Shown: piece by piece, positions 3,252 to 54,688 of the stretch | Numbering within the stretch: the stretch's first letter is position 1 | Layout of the letters: every line of letters starts with the position of its first letter | Source of the DNA: Patescibacteria group bacterium | GTDB lineage: Bacteria > Patescibacteriota > Minisyncoccia > Phycocordibacterales > JACOZG01 | Assembly: GCA_038065495.1 (NCBI GenBank) | Contig: JBBTQW010000001.1 | Location: 110,137 to 164,824 of the forward strand | Reading direction: 5' to 3' | Length of the DNA: 54,688 nt | The notes under the pieces: generated by a model | Told to the model about the DNA's origin: nothing | The model's database searches: none | The model's input: only the letters and a program-made list of their open reading frames with translations | Made by a program: the position numbers and the translations under genes

Positions 3252-3617
3252 TTGCAGAAAAACTGGGAAAAAATTAAAGAAACAGTGCTCGGCGAGGCTT
3301 ATGATTTGAGTCTCGCCTTTATTGGCGACAAAAAAGCGCTGACGTTGAATCAAACATTGCGAAGCAAAAATAAAATTGCTAACGTACTAAGTTTCCCACT
3401 GTCTAAAACCTCCGGCGAAATTCTAATTAACAAAAAACAGGCGATTCGCGACAACTTCTCGCTCGATTATCTCTTTATCCACGGATTGTTACATTTGAAA
3501 GGTCTTGACCATGGTAGTAGAATGGAGCGTGAAGAAGAAAAATTAATTAAGCTGTTTAAATTAAGCAAGAATTTAAAAAATAAAAAGAATGGCACGTCAC
3601 ATCGTCGCAGGACTTGA
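3252..3617 (+). CDS. ybeY: rRNA maturation endoribonuclease YbeY
   Basis: HGLLHLKGLDH matches the HxxxHxxGxxH zinc motif. TTG start. The 3' end overlaps ftsA by 29 nt. Confidence 0.8.
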   Translation: MQKNWEKIKETVLGEAYDLSLAFIGDKKALTLNQTLRSKNKIANVLSFPLSKTSGEILINKKQAIRDNFSLDYLFIHGLLHLKGLDHGSRMEREEEKLIKLFKLSKNLKNKKNGTSHRRRT

Positions 3618-5510: not shown

Positions 5511-5548
5511 GCGCCACTCACCGATTCGTTCGGAGGTGGCGCTTTTTC
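5511..5548 (+). terminator. Rho-independent terminator
   Basis: gcgccac ... gtggcgc stem followed by ttttt, 25 nt after the stop of the 4869-5486 ORF. Confidence 0.5.
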
Positions 5549-25398: not shown

Positions 25399-25409
25399 TA
25401 CTTTGTCTG

Positions 25410-25789
25410 TGGAGATGGCGGGAATCGAACCCGCGTGCAAATGGTGTGACTCAAACGATCTACATACTTAGCTCACTTAATTTTCGACAGCGCAACTCGG
25501 AGTGAGCGAAACGTCGTGCTGGTTAGTGTCTAAGTTTTCGGGCTAATCGCGACACGAGATTAGCGCTAGCTCGCGGTTATAACACCTCTAGCCGCCCAGC
25601 AAGCGAGTGCGGTAGAGACGCCGAATTAAGCTAAAGCGAAACTCGGAGCGAAGGTGAAGTATGGGGATACCATATCACCTTGCTTAGCCATTTTGTTGGC
25701 AAGTGTGTTTTGTTGGTTGATTAGCGAGAGTCCAACGCTCTCGGTATGCCCGAGATGAGAATCGCCAAGTGTCTAGGCCGATCATCCCC
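25410..25789 (-). ncRNA. ssrA: tmRNA (SsrA)
   Basis: The 5' GGGGAUG pairs with the 3' CAUCUCC, giving the G3:U wobble. T-arm is GCGGGUUCGAUUCCCGC. An internal reading frame ends ...PYFTFAPSFALA-TAA; the likely tag is ANKMAKQGDMVSPYFTFAPSFALA or a shorter version starting at a later Ala. Immediately downstream of smpB. Confidence 0.9.
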
Positions 25790-41583: not shown

Positions 41584-42561
41584 TCAAATACGCATTCTCT
41601 GGACCAACTTCCACCCATTCCCCCATCCCAACATCCCCAAATATGACTGTTTCCGCGCCTCATTCCCATTTTCTTGCAACTTGGCCAGCATCCTTTTTCT
41701 CGTCGCTTTGCGCAAAACACGATGATCCGGAAAGTGAACCCAGCCCAAGAAATCCACGCCAGAAGCGAGTGTTTTGATCGAAACTTTGTGCGGATGGAGC
41801 TGTAACTTGAGTTTGGTTTGGAGAAAAGTTGATATTTTTGGGATAAGTTTTGTTAGATATTCTTGATCTCGTGAGAAAATCACAAAATCGTCAGCATATC
41901 GCACATAATGTTTTATTCGCAATTCATGTTTAAGAAACTGATCAAGTTCGTTGAGATAAATATTCACTAAGAGTTGCGATGTGAGATTGCCGAGCGGCAA
42001 ACCCACGCCCAGTCTGGTTGAGTGAAAACTAGCAATAATCTCGCGCAGTAAGTTGAGAATATCTGGATCAGCAATGTGTTGAGCTAAAATATTTAATAAA
42101 ATCTGGTGATCAATGCTGGCGAAAAACTTCCGGATATCGCACTTGAGAATCCAGCACTGCTTAGTGTCATTTCGCGAAACTTGATAACCAAAAGCGCGAA
42201 ATCTGTTTAATGCTTTATGCGTGCCTTTGCCAATGCGACAAGAAAATGAGTCAGCGATAAATTTAGTGTGAAAATATGGGTATAACTTCCGGTAAATCGC
42301 GTGATGTAATACACGATCGCGCACACTCGCTTTGTGGATGTCGCGCGGTTTAGGATCGTTGATTTTGAAAGCTTTGTAAGCGCCGTGGCGATAAGCGTGA
42401 TTTTTGAGTTCGTGATTTAACTGAAACAGATTATCCATCAAGCCAAACTGAAACGCTTGCACATCTGGCTTGTGCCGTTTGCCACGGATAAATTCTTGCC
42501 AAGCTTGGAGCAAGTTCGCGGTGGAAATGATGTGAAAGAAATTGTATAGTAATTGAGTCAT
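41584..42561 (-). CDS. DGR-type reverse transcriptase
   Basis: 325 aa. RT motifs include YVRYADDFVIF (YxDD) and LPLGNLTSQLLVNIYLNELD; the [IL]GxxxSQ motif is typical of DGR RTs. There is no maturase or endonuclease extension. An SD-like CAGGAGA lies upstream. Confidence 0.9.
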   Translation of the reverse strand: MTQLLYNFFHIISTANLLQAWQEFIRGKRHKPDVQAFQFGLMDNLFQLNHELKNHAYRHGAYKAFKINDPKPRDIHKASVRDRVLHHAIYRKLYPYFHTKFIADSFSCRIGKGTHKALNRFRAFGYQVSRNDTKQCWILKCDIRKFFASIDHQILLNILAQHIADPDILNLLREIIASFHSTRLGVGLPLGNLTSQLLVNIYLNELDQFLKHELRIKHYVRYADDFVIFSRDQEYLTKLIPKISTFLQTKLKLQLHPHKVSIKTLASGVDFLGWVHFPDHRVLRKATRKRMLAKLQENGNEARKQSYLGMLGWGNGWKLVQRMRI

Positions 42562-42605
42562 GAATTTTAATTCTCCTGTAGTTACCCCCCCCCCGCAACA
42601 ATTTA

Positions 42606-42974
42606 TTGCCTTTGTTAGAACGCCTCAAAACGACTTATCTTGAGTGGTATAAATATTACCAAATCATTCCCAAAACTCATCGCCATTCGCTTGGCCAACG
42701 TATCGATAACTTATTTGTGGAAGTGATCGAGGGGACAGCAATCGCCGGCTTCTTGCCCAAAACCGAGAAACAGCCGTGGGTAAAACTGGCGATCAGAAAA
42801 TTAGATACACTCAAGATCTTGCTAATGATCCTGTGGGAAACTAAATCACTGGATAACAAAAAGTATCTGGCAATTTCAGCAAAGATTGATGAAGTGGGTA
42901 AAATGCTCGGCGGTTGGAATGGCCAACTACAGAGACAAAACTCTCCCGCCGAAGCAGGAGAGAAAATGAAGTGA
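42606..42974 (+). CDS. avd: DGR accessory variability determinant (Avd-like four-helix-bundle protein)
   Basis: 122 aa, helical and basic. The C-terminal IDEVGKMLGGW resembles the Avd / 23S-rRNA-IVS protein family (EVGRILGSW in Bordetella phage bAvd, recalled from memory). TTG start. On the opposite strand to RT, TR and target. Confidence 0.75.
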   Translation: MPLLERLKTTYLEWYKYYQIIPKTHRHSLGQRIDNLFVEVIEGTAIAGFLPKTEKQPWVKLAIRKLDTLKILLMILWETKSLDNKKYLAISAKIDEVGKMLGGWNGQLQRQNSPAEAGEKMK

Positions 42975-42977
42975 GTA

Positions 42978-43095
42978 GCGACGGAAGGCAAACCAGTCGT
43001 TCTGATCGTTGAAGTTGCTCACCCAGTTGAGGTTCGCCTTGCGGTTGGAATCGTTCCACCAGACATAGCAGGCCTGCTGGTTGCCCTCGAAGGTA
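42978..43095 (-). repeat. DGR template repeat (TR)
   Basis: 118 bp. The minus-strand sense reads FEGNQQACYVWWNDSNRKANLNWVSNFNDQNDWFAFRR with 8 AAC codons. All 15 differences from the VR are at A in this copy. Confidence 0.9.
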
Positions 43096-43342
43096 ATGTG
43101 CGAAATATCGTCCTAACCACCATCTCTCGATTGTTTAGAAACAACAAACTTGAGATTGAATCTAATTCGGCATCTTAATGCCTTAATATTTCACACCAAG
43201 TAACTTCATTTTTTGAAGTGTCTACATACACCGCGCTACCCGAGACCGTGATCGCGGATATTCTGGATGTATGGATACTGGCTTCGGTAGCCGGCAACCG
43301 TAATCACCAGCTTATGCACCTAGTGCCGAGCATATTTTAACA

Positions 43343-43376
43343 AAAGAAAAACCCCGAGCATAATTGCCCGGGGTTC
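43343..43376 (-). terminator. Rho-independent terminator of the DGR target gene
   Basis: Minus strand reads AACCCCGGGCAATTATGCTCGGGGTT followed by TTTCTTTTG. Confidence 0.6.
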
Positions 43377-43442
43377 CATTGTTAACGTTTTGGAATACGT
43401 TTGCGGGTTGAGGTCGCGCTAAGATCAAAGGATCTGAAAGAT

Positions 43443-44123
43443 CTAATGACCCGAGGCCACAGAGCTCTGGCGACGGAAGGCAAACCAGTCGTTCTGATCG
43501 TCGAAGCTGCCCACCCAGCGGAGGCGCGCCCCGCGGCTGGAACCGCGCCACCAGACATAGCAGGCCTGCCGGTCGCCCTCGAAGGTACATTCCTTAGTGG
43601 CGACCACATACATTGGGTTCATCCCGAGCTCTTGGTGCAGCTTGGGACAGCGAGCGCCAATAGCGAAAACCTGGCGAGGGTGGGTGCGTTCCAGTTGATA
43701 CTGCTTCGCCCAAGCTTGAGCCTTATCCCAATTGCCATCACCTTGGGGAAAGTTGAGCAGAATGAGCTCGTCTTCCCGAGTGCCAGTCCCCTCAGTCGGA
43801 TACTGATCACCGACCTTGCGGACATTGTAATTGGCCGGAGTATCGGGACCAGCGACATTGATTGCTTCTTGCCAGTCCTGGTCTAGAGTGACCGGTACTT
43901 GGACAATGTGTAACCGTGCGCCAGGAGGAGCAACCAGTTCGCCGAGAACCATTGGCCGTTTCGCCTTGATGCCATCCAGCATCTCGGCTACTAGGCCGCT
44001 GACCAGACCATAGGTCTGGAAGTCTTTGCGAGTGATTCCCTTGTCTTTGGCCATCTTGCGGATCTGATCCAGCTGGCCGGAACTCAAAGCTTCGTACTTC
44101 GGAGGTTTCGCTGTCTTCGTCAT
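43443..44123 (-). CDS. DGR target (variable) protein with no signal peptide
   Basis: 226 aa. The VR occupies codons for ...FEGDRQACYVWWRGSSRGARLRWVGSFDDQNDWFAFRR, 8 codons before the stop. An SD-like GGGAGAT lies upstream of the ATG. Confidence 0.85.
   Translation of the reverse strand: MTKTAKPPKYEALSSGQLDQIRKMAKDKGITRKDFQTYGLVSGLVAEMLDGIKAKRPMVLGELVAPPGARLHIVQVPVTLDQDWQEAINVAGPDTPANYNVRKVGDQYPTEGTGTREDELILLNFPQGDGNWDKAQAWAKQYQLERTHPRQVFAIGARCPKLHQELGMNPMYVVATKECTFEGDRQACYVWWRGSSRGARLRWVGSFDDQNDWFAFRRQSSVASGH
43470..43587 (-). repeat. DGR variable repeat (VR)
   Basis: 118 bp, collinear with the TR at an offset of 492 bp. It has 15 substitutions (to G or C on the coding strand), all opposite TR adenines. 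Confidence 0.9.
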
Positions 44124-47222: not shown

Positions 47223-48113
47223 ATGGTAGCAGCGACAGCTAGAACAGAGCCTAGCAAAGTAGTGAGCTCTGAGCCAACAACCTCATGTCGTCCGTTTCAT
47301 GGAGTCATCGTTGAGGTCTTTGGGTTCCCGACTGGAGACTGGAGCATCGAGGCTGGCGGTGGTTATCAAGACCCCAATGCCTTCGTCAATGTAGCTCGCC
47401 TGGCCAGAGACAGACACCGTCTCACTGGGTTAATCGTACCAATCGTCAGAACCTTCAACGCCAGACTGGGAGGACTCTGCGATTTTTCGACTATGTTTAC
47501 TCCGATCTCGTGCCTGCGGGTCCGAACTGGTTTGGAGGCTGACGGCGTTCTCTATCTGCCGCCTGGTTGGGGCATCGCTTTCCCTTCCGCCGATTGCCCG
47601 ACCGTTGTGATCTGGGGCCAAGAAACAGGAATTGTGATGGCCGCCCACGCTGGACGAGATTCACTCTTCGATCGTGCTTTTGCTTCTGGTATTCAAAACA
47701 TCAGAGAAGAAACGTGGCCAATCAAGAGCATCATCCTAAGAATGTTAGAGTGGGTCAAGAGCTTCGGCGAACCATCAGAGAGTATCCATGTCTTTTCTTG
47801 TGTCGGCATTGGCGCAGAGAGCTACCCTCACCGCTTCGACGATCCTCGACATGGTCGAGCCAATCAGAGAGTCTGGGAATACCTGAAGCAGCGGTATGGC
47901 CACAACGGCGCCTTTGTGGGAGAAAATCTCGATCTCCACGAATTGATCCGCCTGCAAGCTCTCTGTGTGGGAGTGCCAGCAGAAAACATCACCCGAGACA
48001 GGGTAGATACTTATGCCGACACTGATTCATCTGGCCAGCCTCTCTACCACAGCGTGAGGCGCGAACCAGGAAGCAAGAAGCGAAATCTCGTCTTCGTCGC
48101 ACACCTTGGCTAA
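47223..48113 (+). CDS. YfiH/PgeF-like laccase-domain (Cu-oxidase_4) protein
   Basis: SADCPTVVIW, AAHAGRDSL and FSCVGIGAESYPHRF segments resemble the ADCxP / HAGWRG / C..C..Y motifs of the YfiH family. Start set at the ATG at 47223, preceded by the SD aaggag. Confidence 0.6.
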   Translation: MVAATARTEPSKVVSSEPTTSCRPFHGVIVEVFGFPTGDWSIEAGGGYQDPNAFVNVARLARDRHRLTGLIVPIVRTFNARLGGLCDFSTMFTPISCLRVRTGLEADGVLYLPPGWGIAFPSADCPTVVIWGQETGIVMAAHAGRDSLFDRAFASGIQNIREETWPIKSIILRMLEWVKSFGEPSESIHVFSCVGIGAESYPHRFDDPRHGRANQRVWEYLKQRYGHNGAFVGENLDLHELIRLQALCVGVPAENITRDRVDTYADTDSSGQPLYHSVRREPGSKKRNLVFVAHLG

Positions 48114-52731: not shown

Positions 52732-53469
52732 CTAGGTGAACTCCGGTCGGGCCAGAGCAGCACTCAACTTCTCAGCCAACTGCCGATCGTCGATTCGACC
52801 ACTGTTCGTCGTCGAATCAATCAAACAACTGATGAGCAGCGTGGAGAAATGTTCGTTGAAGCCGATCAGACTGATCAGTTTGGCCGACCGAGCCCGGAGA
52901 GCCGACACCGCGTGGAAAATGGGAGTGACTCCAGCGAGAACATCACTATCCGGTGCCACCGGCTTAGGCTGATCCACTTCCGGCATTCGCTCCACCAGAT
53001 CGCCGACGGTGATAGCGAGAACCTCCTCTCGCACGTCTTCGAGCTTGAGCCCAAGATTACGGAGAACCTTGCCGGCAATATCTTCCGGATCCTCCAGACC
53101 ATGGCGAAGTAACCCGAGCAAGAGGTACCCCGTGCCGACCTCCCGACCACTAGATTCTTCGTCCGCAAACTCAACCGCCTTATTGGCTCGCGGAGTCAGC
53201 AGAGGCGTGGCTGTGGTTAACACATCGGGCCCAGGGTGAACAAGTCTCTCGACTTCGGAACGAACTCTCTTCAGATCAATACCAATTTCTCTCAAAATCC
53301 TCCAGCCTTCAGCGCCACCTTGTTCACCTTCTTTCAACAAAGCGAGCAAGATATGCTCGGTGTTGATATGTTCATGGTTAAACCGTTGTGCCTCTTGTTG
53401 AGCACACGCCATCACCTCCAGGGCACGGAGATTAAATCCAGCAAATACATCACGTGGCTTACTCGACAT
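52732..53469 (-). CDS. Stand-alone Clp N-terminal (double Clp_N repeat) domain protein
   Basis: Two Clp_N repeats (LEVMACAQQEAQRFNHEHINTEHILLALL and ANKAVEFADEESSGREVGTGYLLLGLL) with no AAA+ module. Start set at the ATG at 53469, preceded by the SD GGAGGA. Confidence 0.75.
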   Translation of the reverse strand: MSSKPRDVFAGFNLRALEVMACAQQEAQRFNHEHINTEHILLALLKEGEQGGAEGWRILREIGIDLKRVRSEVERLVHPGPDVLTTATPLLTPRANKAVEFADEESSGREVGTGYLLLGLLRHGLEDPEDIAGKVLRNLGLKLEDVREEVLAITVGDLVERMPEVDQPKPVAPDSDVLAGVTPIFHAVSALRARSAKLISLIGFNEHFSTLLISCLIDSTTNSGRIDDRQLAEKLSAALARPEFT

Positions 53470-53689: not shown

Positions 53690-53806
53690 TCAGGCCAGCC
53701 TGGTGAGAACCGGTCCCCGACCACGCCGGCGACCAGGACCACGATGCCACTCCATCTTGACTGCCTTGGTAAACTCTTGCCAAAAAGCGCGAAAGAACTG
53801 GAACAT
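53690..53806 (-). CDS. Candidate 38-aa Arg-rich small protein
   Basis: ATG at 53806 preceded by GGAGGATTGAAA. Encodes MFQFFRAFWQEFTKAVKMEWHRGPGRRRGRGPVLTRLA. It competes with a 68-aa TTG ORF in another frame. Confidence 0.25.
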   Translation of the reverse strand: MFQFFRAFWQEFTKAVKMEWHRGPGRRRGRGPVLTRLA

Positions 53807-53867
53807 TTTCAATCCTCCGTTTCTAGGTTATCCTGCCAAAACACGGCTCTATTGAGCCACTACTACA

Positions 53868-53896
53868 AGTCTATCACAGGCGTATTAAAATGTCAA
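53868..53896 (-). promoter_or_regulatory. Putative promoter (TTGACA-N17-TAGACT)
   Basis: On the minus strand, TTGACA lies at 53896-53891 and TAGACT at 53873-53868, downstream of the 16S 3' end. Confidence 0.4.
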
Positions 53897-54061
53897 GTCT
53901 AGCGAGGGTTAGTTTATTGGGCTTTGTTTTGTTCCGTTTAAGCCTGGTCTTTCCCAGCGTCACATCGCTTTTAGGACGGCGATGACTTGTGGTTAGCTTT
54001 ATGGGCCAACCGGTCCCCTTCTGCACTCGATCGAGATGCGGAAAGATCGACTACTTTTTCA

Positions 54062-54688
54062 CCTTAAATAATTCCACGAGCAGCTTCCGCTACCCGTGCC
54101 TTGTTACGACTTAAGCCCTGTCACCGAGCTTACCTTAGGATCCCGCGAACGGGACACTTGGGGTATTCCCGGCTCCCTTGCCTTGACGGGCGGTGAGTAC
54201 AAGACTTGAGAACGTATTCACCGCGGTATAGCTGACCCGCGATTACTAGCGATTCCAGCTTCATGAGGGCGAATTGCAGCCCTCAATCCGAACTGAGACC
54301 ACTTTTTGGGATTGGCTCCGGCTTACGCCTTTGCAGCCCATTGTAGTGGCCATTGTATTATGTGTGTAGCCCAGGATATCAGAGGGTCATGCTGACTTGG
54401 CGTCATCCTCGCTTCCTCTCCGCAGCGCGGAGCAGTCTCGCGTGACACTTGTAACACGCGACAAGGGTTGCGTTCGTTTCCCCACTTAAGGGAACAGCTC
54501 AAGCCACGAACTGACGACAGCCATGCAACACCTGTCCAACTGTCCTTGTGAGACGTTCTAAGTTTCCTCAGAACTTCAGTTAGATTTCAAACCCTGGTGA
54601 GGTTCTTCGTTTACCATCGAATTAAACCACATAATCCACCGCTTGTGCAAGTCCCCGTCTATTCTTTTGAGTTTTAGCCTTGCGGCCG
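54062..54688 (-). rRNA. rrs: 16S rRNA, 3' portion (partial; continues past the window end)
   Basis: The + strand carries reverse complements of universal 16S blocks: ccttgttacgactt (1492 region), gacgggcggtgagtacaag (1390-1405), ctgacgacagccatgca (about 1050-1070), and ccgtctattcttttgagtttt (about 907-926). The 3' end is estimated by alignment to the E. coli tail recalled from memory. Confidence 0.85.

Follow-up and report, generated by a model that had tools for sequence, protein, structure and literature searches.

Several bacteria have been described whose 16S ribosomal RNA (rRNA) lacks an anti-Shine-Dalgarno (anti-SD) sequence. Chryseobacterium, Elizabethkingia, Riemerella, Blattabacterium, Mycoplasma, and Carsonella are among the cases given by Amin et al. 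(2018, PMC6107228; also Lim 2012), and the same text reports variant tails that are not accompanied by a matching variant Shine-Dalgarno (SD) sequence. In the Parcubacteria, as described by Tsurumaki et al. (2022, RNA 28:1041, PMC9297842), the CCTCCT motif was detected in just 48%. The motif-less lineages overlap the group that lacks ribosomal protein uL1, and SD helices are thought not to form in them (PMC9297842). Here, we analyzed a stretch of 54,688 nucleotides (nt) from a Patescibacteria group bacterium (assembly GCA_038065495.1, contig JBBTQW010000001.1, positions 110,137 to 164,824), called the window below. On the minus strand, the right-hand end of the window holds the 3' portion of this genome's sole 16S rRNA gene (rrs), and the tail of that 16S rRNA has no CCUCC. 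The loss adds to the published state of the anti-SD-less, uL1-lacking Parcubacteria subgroup, as far as the text of Tsurumaki et al. describes it.

The likeness to that subgroup is close. The genome belongs to the Candidate Phyla Radiation (CPR) and the Parcubacteria, helix 45 is kept, CCTCCT is missing from the tail, and uL1 was not found. What goes beyond the text of that paper, which leaves the naming of lineages to its figures and supplements (PMC9297842), are the initiation signals, a residual set of SD-led accessory open reading frames (ORFs), and a covarying hairpin in the tail. The cases of Lim 2012 and Amin et al. 2018 (PMC6107228), as described there, also share a helix 45 with a 13-nt tail behind it that lacks CCUCCU, a majority of SD-less genes, and phylogenetic clustering. 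Unlike those cases, the present lineage belongs to another phylum, its loss spans an order that comprises more than 200 families, and a small SD-led gene set is detectable.

Two other systems can be compared. Bacteroidia ribosomes are reportedly "blind" to the SD sequence, and mammalian mitochondria translate mRNAs with short leaders or none at all. The Bacteroidia, according to a 2026 account (NAR 2026, PMC13000453), resemble our genome in near-total SD-independence, in A-rich leaders with A at -3, and in having few SD-like genes. They keep an anti-SD that is sequestered by bS21, bS18, and bS6 and that serves rpsU autoregulation and 16S maturation (PMC13000453), whereas here the anti-SD is gone and bS21 was not found. 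The mammalian mitochondrial small-subunit rRNA, as treated in PMC10582724, likewise has no anti-SD and sits in a reduced ribosome. Mitochondria retain an Era homologue, which recognizes helix 45 together with the site next to it, in contrast to our genome, where no Era scored over the cut-off; in the same source, most CPR are said to have lost Era, whose KH domain reads GAUCACCUCC (PMC10582724).

The 3' end of the 16S gene was located by aligning the window to the Rfam model RF00177. With cmscan, window positions 54688..54062 on the minus strand matched model positions 883-1533 at 561.8 bits (E 1.1e-175; the gathering threshold is 50 bits), a match that includes the 3' minor domain (helices 44 and 45). 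Its 5' side is cut because the window and the contig, C1, both end there. Helices 44 and 45 and the decoding region aligned with high posterior probability. Helix 45, CACGGGUAGC-GGAA-GCUGCUCGUG (54075..54098, minus strand), is intact with 10/10 pairs, and it is followed by a 13-nt tail, GAAUUAUUUAAGG (54062..54074, minus strand), where GAUCACCUCCUUU is expected. Model positions 1521-1533 (GAUcACCUCCUUu) align to this tail from 54074 to 54062 without a gap and with top posterior probability. As 1533 is the last position of the model, the 3' end of the gene is set at 54062 (54062..54688 for the part of the gene in the window, minus strand). In the alignment, helix 45 is recognizable and the 13-nt tail behind it has no CCUCC(U), which is one of the marks of an anti-SD-less 16S rRNA in the sense of Lim 2012 and Amin et al. 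2018. CACCTCC occurs on the minus strand of the window only at 5532 and 37867. Downstream of the 16S 3' end, the nearest CCTCC on the same strand is at 47534, so a displaced tail behind an insertion is excluded for 6.5 kilobases (kb). The first-pass annotation of this DNA had suggested that the mature 16S rRNA lacks CCUCC and that no tail had been displaced by an insertion; both points stand with the model-defined end, and the tail that it quoted is identical to the letters of the minus strand.

The genome as a whole (G000; 618,632 base pairs in three contigs, C1-C3, estimated 97.6% complete) contains one rrs, in two pieces: C3 ends with model positions 1-62, and C1 ends with 883-1533. The 23S gene is divided in a similar way, with positions 1-766 at the end of C2 and positions 2660-2925, together with a tRNA and the 5S gene, at the start of C3. 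The rRNA genes are thus unlinked, the 16S lying about 9.6 kb after the 23S-tRNA-5S group, and contigs break inside both the 23S and the 16S. A profile search of the G000 contigs with RF00177 and RF02541 gave 0 matches, which does not mean absence: this search misses rRNA genes cut by contig ends, and cmscan finds the pieces.

These breaks, together with the roughly 1-kb insertions found in the 16S genes of relatives, are what could speak for an assembly artefact, that is, a chimeric join or an insertion-displaced tail hiding a true 16S with CCUCC. However, the tail lies 626 nt away from the contig end, and contigs assembled from two DNA studies (Logan) bridge it over the span 53700-54096. A 1490-nt contig of run X1 does so with 0 differences, and an 824-nt contig of run X4, from a different study, with 8 differences, all at 53744-53907. 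Run X1 may be the source sample; run X4 probably is not. Read support had been proposed as a check in the first-pass annotation, and in both studies the tail junction is spanned unchanged. Canonical tails are detectable by this method in X1, because contigs of other organisms that share helix 45 diverge at 54073 into a canonical TCACCTCCTTTCT tail. The two ends of the gene are also connected through the predicted pre-16S. A stretch of the trailer (53911..53940, minus strand) forms a 30-nt inverted match (93%, E 4e-5) with C3:10288-10316, upstream of the 16S 5' end, and the pairing is contiguous in duplex prediction. This leader-trailer helix joins the C1 and C3 ends in one 16S precursor. The energy of the leader:trailer duplex was also tried as evidence and set aside, since -66.7 compared with -65.5 +/- 6.5 for shuffled sequences shows the statistic to be useless at such a length; the inverted match was used instead. 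Given that CCTCC is absent from the strand for 6.5 kb and that 64 other genomes of the order, independently assembled, have the same kind of tail, we regard an artefact as scarcely credible.

RNA data were less informative. In RNA run X15, depth is 0 at 54024-54050 and above 0 from 54051, and DNA run X1 continues; as this run contains mixed organisms and comes from one study, it is a weak hint and was not used for the mature end. RNA run X17 gave no cover below 54159.

Some further observations concern the 16S gene. Insertions of about 1 kb occur in the 3' third of the 16S in loci L022, L023, L025-L027, L029, and L031-L034 (genomes G037, G008, G021, G012, G027, and G018), with matches split at query positions ~208 and ~295, and in G008 and G012 one insertion ends just 5' of helix 45. 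A promoter-like site, TTGACA-17-TATACT, was read by eye at ~10197-10225 of L001 (on C3), some 120 nt before the 16S gene begins. The helix 28 strand at model positions ~917-927 (window ~54655-54665, minus strand) is GAAUAGACGG, where the model consensus is GAAUuGaCgG. For E. coli, PMC11182017 describes how nt 921-923 can pair alternatively with nt 1532-1534 of the tail. CCTCC/GGAGG is scarcer than expected on the two strands of the window, with 53 occurrences against 77.0 +/- 7.4 in dinucleotide shuffles (100/100 shuffles had at least 53).

The distribution of the trait was then established among relatives. The 16S 3' region was present in 26 of the 41 nearest genomes, G000 included, and all 25 others lacked CCUCC after helix 45. 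Two further members of the order, drawn from a phylum sample, also lacked it, which brings the count to 27/27 other genomes of the same order. In a computed order set of 65 genomes, made of the 25 of alignment A1 and the first 40 new rows of an order-wide pattern search, CCTCC was found in 0/65. The pattern of that search, helix 45 plus 22 bases, matched 106 of 201 genomes sampled evenly across the order, and no CCTCC was seen by eye. As a positive control, the canonical GGAUCACCUCCUUUCU was found in 28 of 31 Patescibacteria of other classes, and the other three had the variants CCCCU, CUCCUU, and CCGCC. In other orders of the same class, the canonical tail was present in 3/7 genomes. The loss of the anti-SD is ancient and fixed across the whole order. 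The trait had first been presented in one genome; its absence of CCUCC is real, but it is not special to that genome, being order-wide (0/65) and already published for a Parcubacteria subgroup.

A different explanation would be that rrs is decaying or pseudogenized in a reduced symbiont and that the tail is merely drifting. Decay would fit the small size of the genome, the failure to find Era and several ribosomal proteins, and the variation of the tail sequence among genera. Yet this is the sole rrs, and helix 44, helix 45, and the decoding region are well aligned. Helix 45 is invariant save for one compensatory pair: across 25 genomes, 100% of its cells are paired, and that one pair is GC or CG (15/10). 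The tail itself retains GGA and a U-rich linker, along with a hairpin that covaries, in 57/65 genomes, and RNA contigs cover the 16S part, though they are not organism-specific. Drift of a dying gene is accordingly given almost no weight.

The affiliation of the genome and its ribosome complement agree with the published subgroup. Among the best relatives of its SecY (58-67% identity), the titles read Paceibacterota, Parcubacteria group, Nomura-, Zambryski-, Kaiser-, Giovannoni-, Adler-, Taylor-, and Azambacteria. An automatic "Saccharibacteria" label stands on many of the SecY rows and was not trusted; the affiliation is read from these SecY relatives. A scan for relatives with a 619-amino-acid InlB-repeat protein found none. 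For uL1 (PF00687), there were 0 matches in G000, against a control found in 14/14 genomes; uL30 and bS21 also gave 0 matches in G000, and nothing in G000 passed the cut-off for Era, the best score being 27.9 bits against 116. Ribosomal proteins bS1 and bL9 are present, as is YbeY, a homologue of the 16S 3'-end maturation endonuclease family (3267..3536, plus strand; 51.7 bits, above the Pfam cut-off). The features that mark CPR ribosomes were found, namely absence of uL30, a small genome, unlinked rRNA genes, and insertions in the 16S of relatives, and both the affiliation and the absence of uL1 are those of the anti-SD-less Parcubacteria subgroup.

Since the 16S tail has lost CCUCC, SD:anti-SD pairing is unusable by the ribosomes of this lineage, and the starts of its genes were examined. 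ORF calls were crude (stop-to-stop frames of at least 100 codons, greedy choice, first ATG) and gave 582 starts. In the window, an SD-like 4-mer lies upstream of 9/57 ORFs, none of which encodes a ribosomal protein, SecY, or a Mur protein, and genome-wide such 4-mers occur at -13..-10 in only 3/192 operon-internal genes. The first-pass annotation had stated that SD motifs are nearly absent upstream of the core genes in the window. This is right for the core and the operon-internal genes, but the rule has an exception in about 30 ORFs that keep an AAGGAG or GGAGG motif, which are described below. At the 216 starts without a nearby alternative, the A+U content of positions -15..-2 is 70-85%; A occupies -3 in 57% of these starts, and C occupies -1 in 41%.

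A second signal lies close to the start codon. The extended -10 motif TGnTAnnnT begins at -19..-15 in 80/582 genes, compared to 0-5 genes per position elsewhere. It is found there in 56 of the 329 first-class genes, which have a long or divergent upstream region, compared to 13 of the 192 operon-internal genes. With a -10 hexamer ending at -7, transcription would begin with the A of the ATG, suggesting that the first genes are leaderless or near-leaderless. A -10 box at a fixed short distance, as seen here, is a mark of bacteria dominated by leaderless mRNAs, the "group C" type of GeneMarkS-2. Orthologues of a Pyr_redox_2 gene in 10 relatives give an example: most begin MK(K)V..GGGFGG right after a -10-like box, and our own gene has the same arrangement at codon 33 (TGCTAAAAT, 7 nt, ATG). 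By this comparison, the "SD-led" start first called for our Pyr_redox_2 gene was rejected as a false start. The same start-region profile was obtained for G002, from the same genus, and G004, from another genus.

Another possible explanation for the A/U-rich leaders is that the tail has become a new anti-SD, its A/U run AAUUAUUUAA pairing with A/U-rich motifs such as UAAAUAAU upstream of starts. The complement of the tail does match at -20..-2 over at least 5 nt more often than expected, at 0.419 against a mean of 0.283, a value reached by 2/200 A/T permutations and, among permutations that also hold two TAA, by 1/59. Whole-tail shuffles were unfair for this comparison, as they break the A/T run, and they were replaced by A/T-only permutations, TAA-matched permutations, and a cross-genome test. 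Every enriched k-mer, however, either includes the TAA of upstream stop codons or looks like a -10 box, and part of the A/U run is the 5' arm of the tail hairpin. The tails of G002 and G004 differ from ours, and the same k-mers are enriched in both genomes, none of them complementary to the genome's own tail. In G004, AATTG has a frequency of 0.033 in the zone against 0.036 in the background, and ATTGA of 0.023 against 0.040. As the A/U-rich leaders do not covary with the tail in G002 and G004, a replacement anti-SD was rejected and is considered very unlikely. The text of Amin et al. 2018 (PMC6107228) likewise gives no variant SD for variant tails.

The exceptions to the SD-less state form a distinct set. 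GGAG, GAGG, or AGGA begins at -13..-10 in 75/582 genes, against 0-7 genes per position elsewhere, and the class counts are 68/329 for first-class and 3/192 for operon-internal genes. The signal was confirmed with an annotation-free test that is independent of the first-ATG rule. AGGAG followed by ATG at spacings of 6, 7, and 8 nt occurs 17, 22, and 22 times (61 in total), compared to about 8 times per other spacing, and 32 of these 61 ATGs open ORFs of at least 80 codons, compared to about 2 per spacing. The control 5-mers CTCCT, GGACG, and AGCAG showed no spacing peak, and the AGGAG peak recurs in G002 and G004, which makes three genomes of the order that have it. Some 30 ORFs in each genome carry AAGGAG or GGAGG 6-8 nt before ATG, including both ORFs directly downstream of the 16S, for which a sigma-70-like promoter, TTGACA-17-TAGACT, was read by eye at 53868..53896 (minus strand). 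An example is the accessory Clp_N-domain ORF at 52732..53469 (minus strand), with GGAGG 8 nt before its ATG. A putative gene of 35 codons lies directly after the 16S trailer (53701-53806, minus strand), with GGAGG 9 nt before its ATG and no Pfam family.

The SD-led ORFs are short and accessory and have a slightly higher G+C content (0.50 vs. 0.48). When 20 of 40 were scanned with Pfam, 7 had a family at or near threshold: SPFH, an IS110 transposase, an oxidoreductase, a cytidylate-kinase-like family, a fatty-acid desaturase, PEP-CTERM, and a weak SOR_N/MatE match. The other 13 of the 20 had no family above threshold, and 0/10 tested against the PHROGs phage families matched, which gives no support for a phage origin. 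Homologues in the same-genus genome G002 were found for 4/27 SD-led ORFs (median identity 33%), compared to 141/191, 186/304, and 45/59 of other genes (66-69% identity). The difference holds within length classes (0/8, 2/13, and 2/6 vs. 22/44, 53/99, and 79/103) and in the reciprocal direction, where 10/36 SD-led ORFs of G002 had homologues in our genome compared to 477/605 controls. Most simply read, SD-like motifs come in with genes of recent acquisition and are then not maintained.

It could instead be that the ~30 AAGGAG elements are functional, read by a factor other than the 16S tail or acting as unstructured purine-rich enhancers or regulators. The peak at canonical spacing is sharp in all three genomes, and with an anti-SD loss this ancient, one would expect any relics in genes of vertical descent to have decayed by now. 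Against such a role, the scarcity of same-genus homologues (4/27 and 10/36) fits recent arrival better than maintained function, and the motif is nearly missing from internal operon genes (3/192). RNA candidates bearing CCUCC were looked for in the window and the rRNA ends. On balance, we consider maintained function unlikely, and recent acquisition remains our reading of these elements.

Separately, a diversity-generating retroelement lies at 41584-44123 (minus strand), in the ribosomal protein cluster, where the uS19 gene is its immediate downstream neighbor. Its reverse transcriptase ORF (RVT_1, E 4.6e-25) is at 41584-42561, and its 118-nt template repeat is at 42978-43095. The variable repeat (43470-43587) lies within the 3' end of a 226-amino-acid ORF at 43443-44123, and 15/15 differences between the repeats fall at adenines of the template copy. 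SD-like motifs lie upstream of both retroelement ORFs.

The tail, although free of CCUCC, has a conserved order of parts: GGA is followed by a linker of 4 nt, rich in U and A, which leads into a small hairpin. In our genome, the hairpin is UUUA-AGG-UGAA (54058..54068, minus strand), which spans the model-defined 3' end and is predicted from comparative evidence. Counted at anchored positions, 57/65 genomes of the order have a 3-bp stem at columns 43-45, against a mean of 13.5 in position-preserving shuffles (0/2000 reach 57), and 35/65 have a 4-bp stem, against a mean of 4.4 (0/2000 reach it). The arms are UUCA/UGAA in 27 genomes, UUC/GAA in 14, UUCC/GGAA in 5, UCCA/UGGA in 2, GUC/GAC in 2, and AUC/GAU in 1, with a few others. 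In an ungapped alignment of 25 genomes, changes occur on both sides in 2/4 pairs, and covariation is 0.120, compared to at most 0.037 in all slid versions. This alignment (A1, MAFFT) undercounts the hairpin (75% of cells paired), since unequal loops fall out of register in it, and position-anchored counts were used instead.

Canonical relatives have a counterpart of this hairpin. Of 31 canonical Patescibacteria, 29 have CUCCUU-UCU-AAGGAG (or AGGGAG), with an unchanged offset and likewise a loop of 3 nt, and the three variant tails covary as well, as CCCU/AGGG, CCAUUU/AAAUGG, and CUCCUU/AGGGAG. This suggests that an anti-SD:trailer hairpin is ancestral and was kept through compensatory change when the anti-SD sequence was lost. 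Because its 3' arm extends past the model-defined 3' end, the hairpin is most likely a precursor feature. It probably serves 3'-end maturation, in a genome where YbeY is kept and Era was not found, and YbeY is the obvious candidate for its reader. Our literature search turned up no obvious published description of an anti-SD:trailer hairpin, and we do not claim novelty for it.

A stronger version of this idea is that the loss of the anti-SD was a remodelling and not a decay, with the hairpin selected in itself (CUCCUU/AAGGAG having changed to UUCA/UGAA, UUCC/GGAA, GUC/GAC, and others) and SD-led foreign genes streaming in and being translated without SD pairing. We hold this to be possible but rather doubtful. 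If it were true, the hairpin could direct 3'-end maturation by YbeY or an exonuclease in an Era-less cell, and if the hairpin stays in the mature 30S subunit, it could stand in for the SD duplex on the platform.

Taken together, the data describe a 619-kb genome of the Parcubacteria/Paceibacteria type whose sole 16S tail lacks CCUCC, as throughout its order, which initiates translation by other routes, and which has SD-led accessory leftovers and a kept tail hairpin. We put the probability of this account at roughly 85%. In the proposed scheme, the first genes of operons would be translated from leaderless or near-leaderless mRNAs made from extended -10 promoters that end about 6 nt before the ATG. 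Downstream genes would rely on A/U-rich, unstructured leaders with A at -3, probably together with bS1 and coupling. The AAGGAG elements before ~30 strain-specific ORFs would be leftovers brought by recently acquired genes, and a hairpin of 3-4 base pairs would be retained at the site where, in canonical relatives, anti-SD and trailer form their pairing, probably for 3'-end maturation.

Several points weigh against this account. The mature 16S 3' end is the one predicted by the model, and 16S positions 63-882 are absent from the assembly. The first-ATG calls are crude, and at least one "SD-led" start proved false. The leaderless architecture is predicted from promoter spacing. Recent import is read from absence in one same-genus genome and a slight G+C excess, with no donor identified and 0/10 phage matches. 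As for the hairpin, 7/65 genomes have none at the expected place, the shuffles ignore relatedness among the genomes, and RNAfold did not predict it on our own tail alone, where it is thermodynamically marginal.

The window also contains a gene for transfer-messenger RNA at 25407-25789 (minus strand; 107.7 bits) and seven tRNA genes, all found with Rfam cmscan.

The central claim has already been published for a Parcubacteria subgroup, and taken by itself it is a confirmation here. The new details are the probable leaderless architecture, SD motifs marking a flexible, probably imported gene pool, the finding that nothing replaces the anti-SD, and, in the tail, a hairpin that covaries. For annotation, start prediction based on the SD sequence will mis-call genes in this lineage. 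In such genomes, SD-like motifs would be a cheap marker of recent gene acquisition. An order of more than 200 families lives without the anti-SD, bS21, uL1, or Era. That tail:trailer pairing was kept, while the sequence of the anti-SD was not, points to a maturation role for the hairpin, which may extend to canonical bacteria too.

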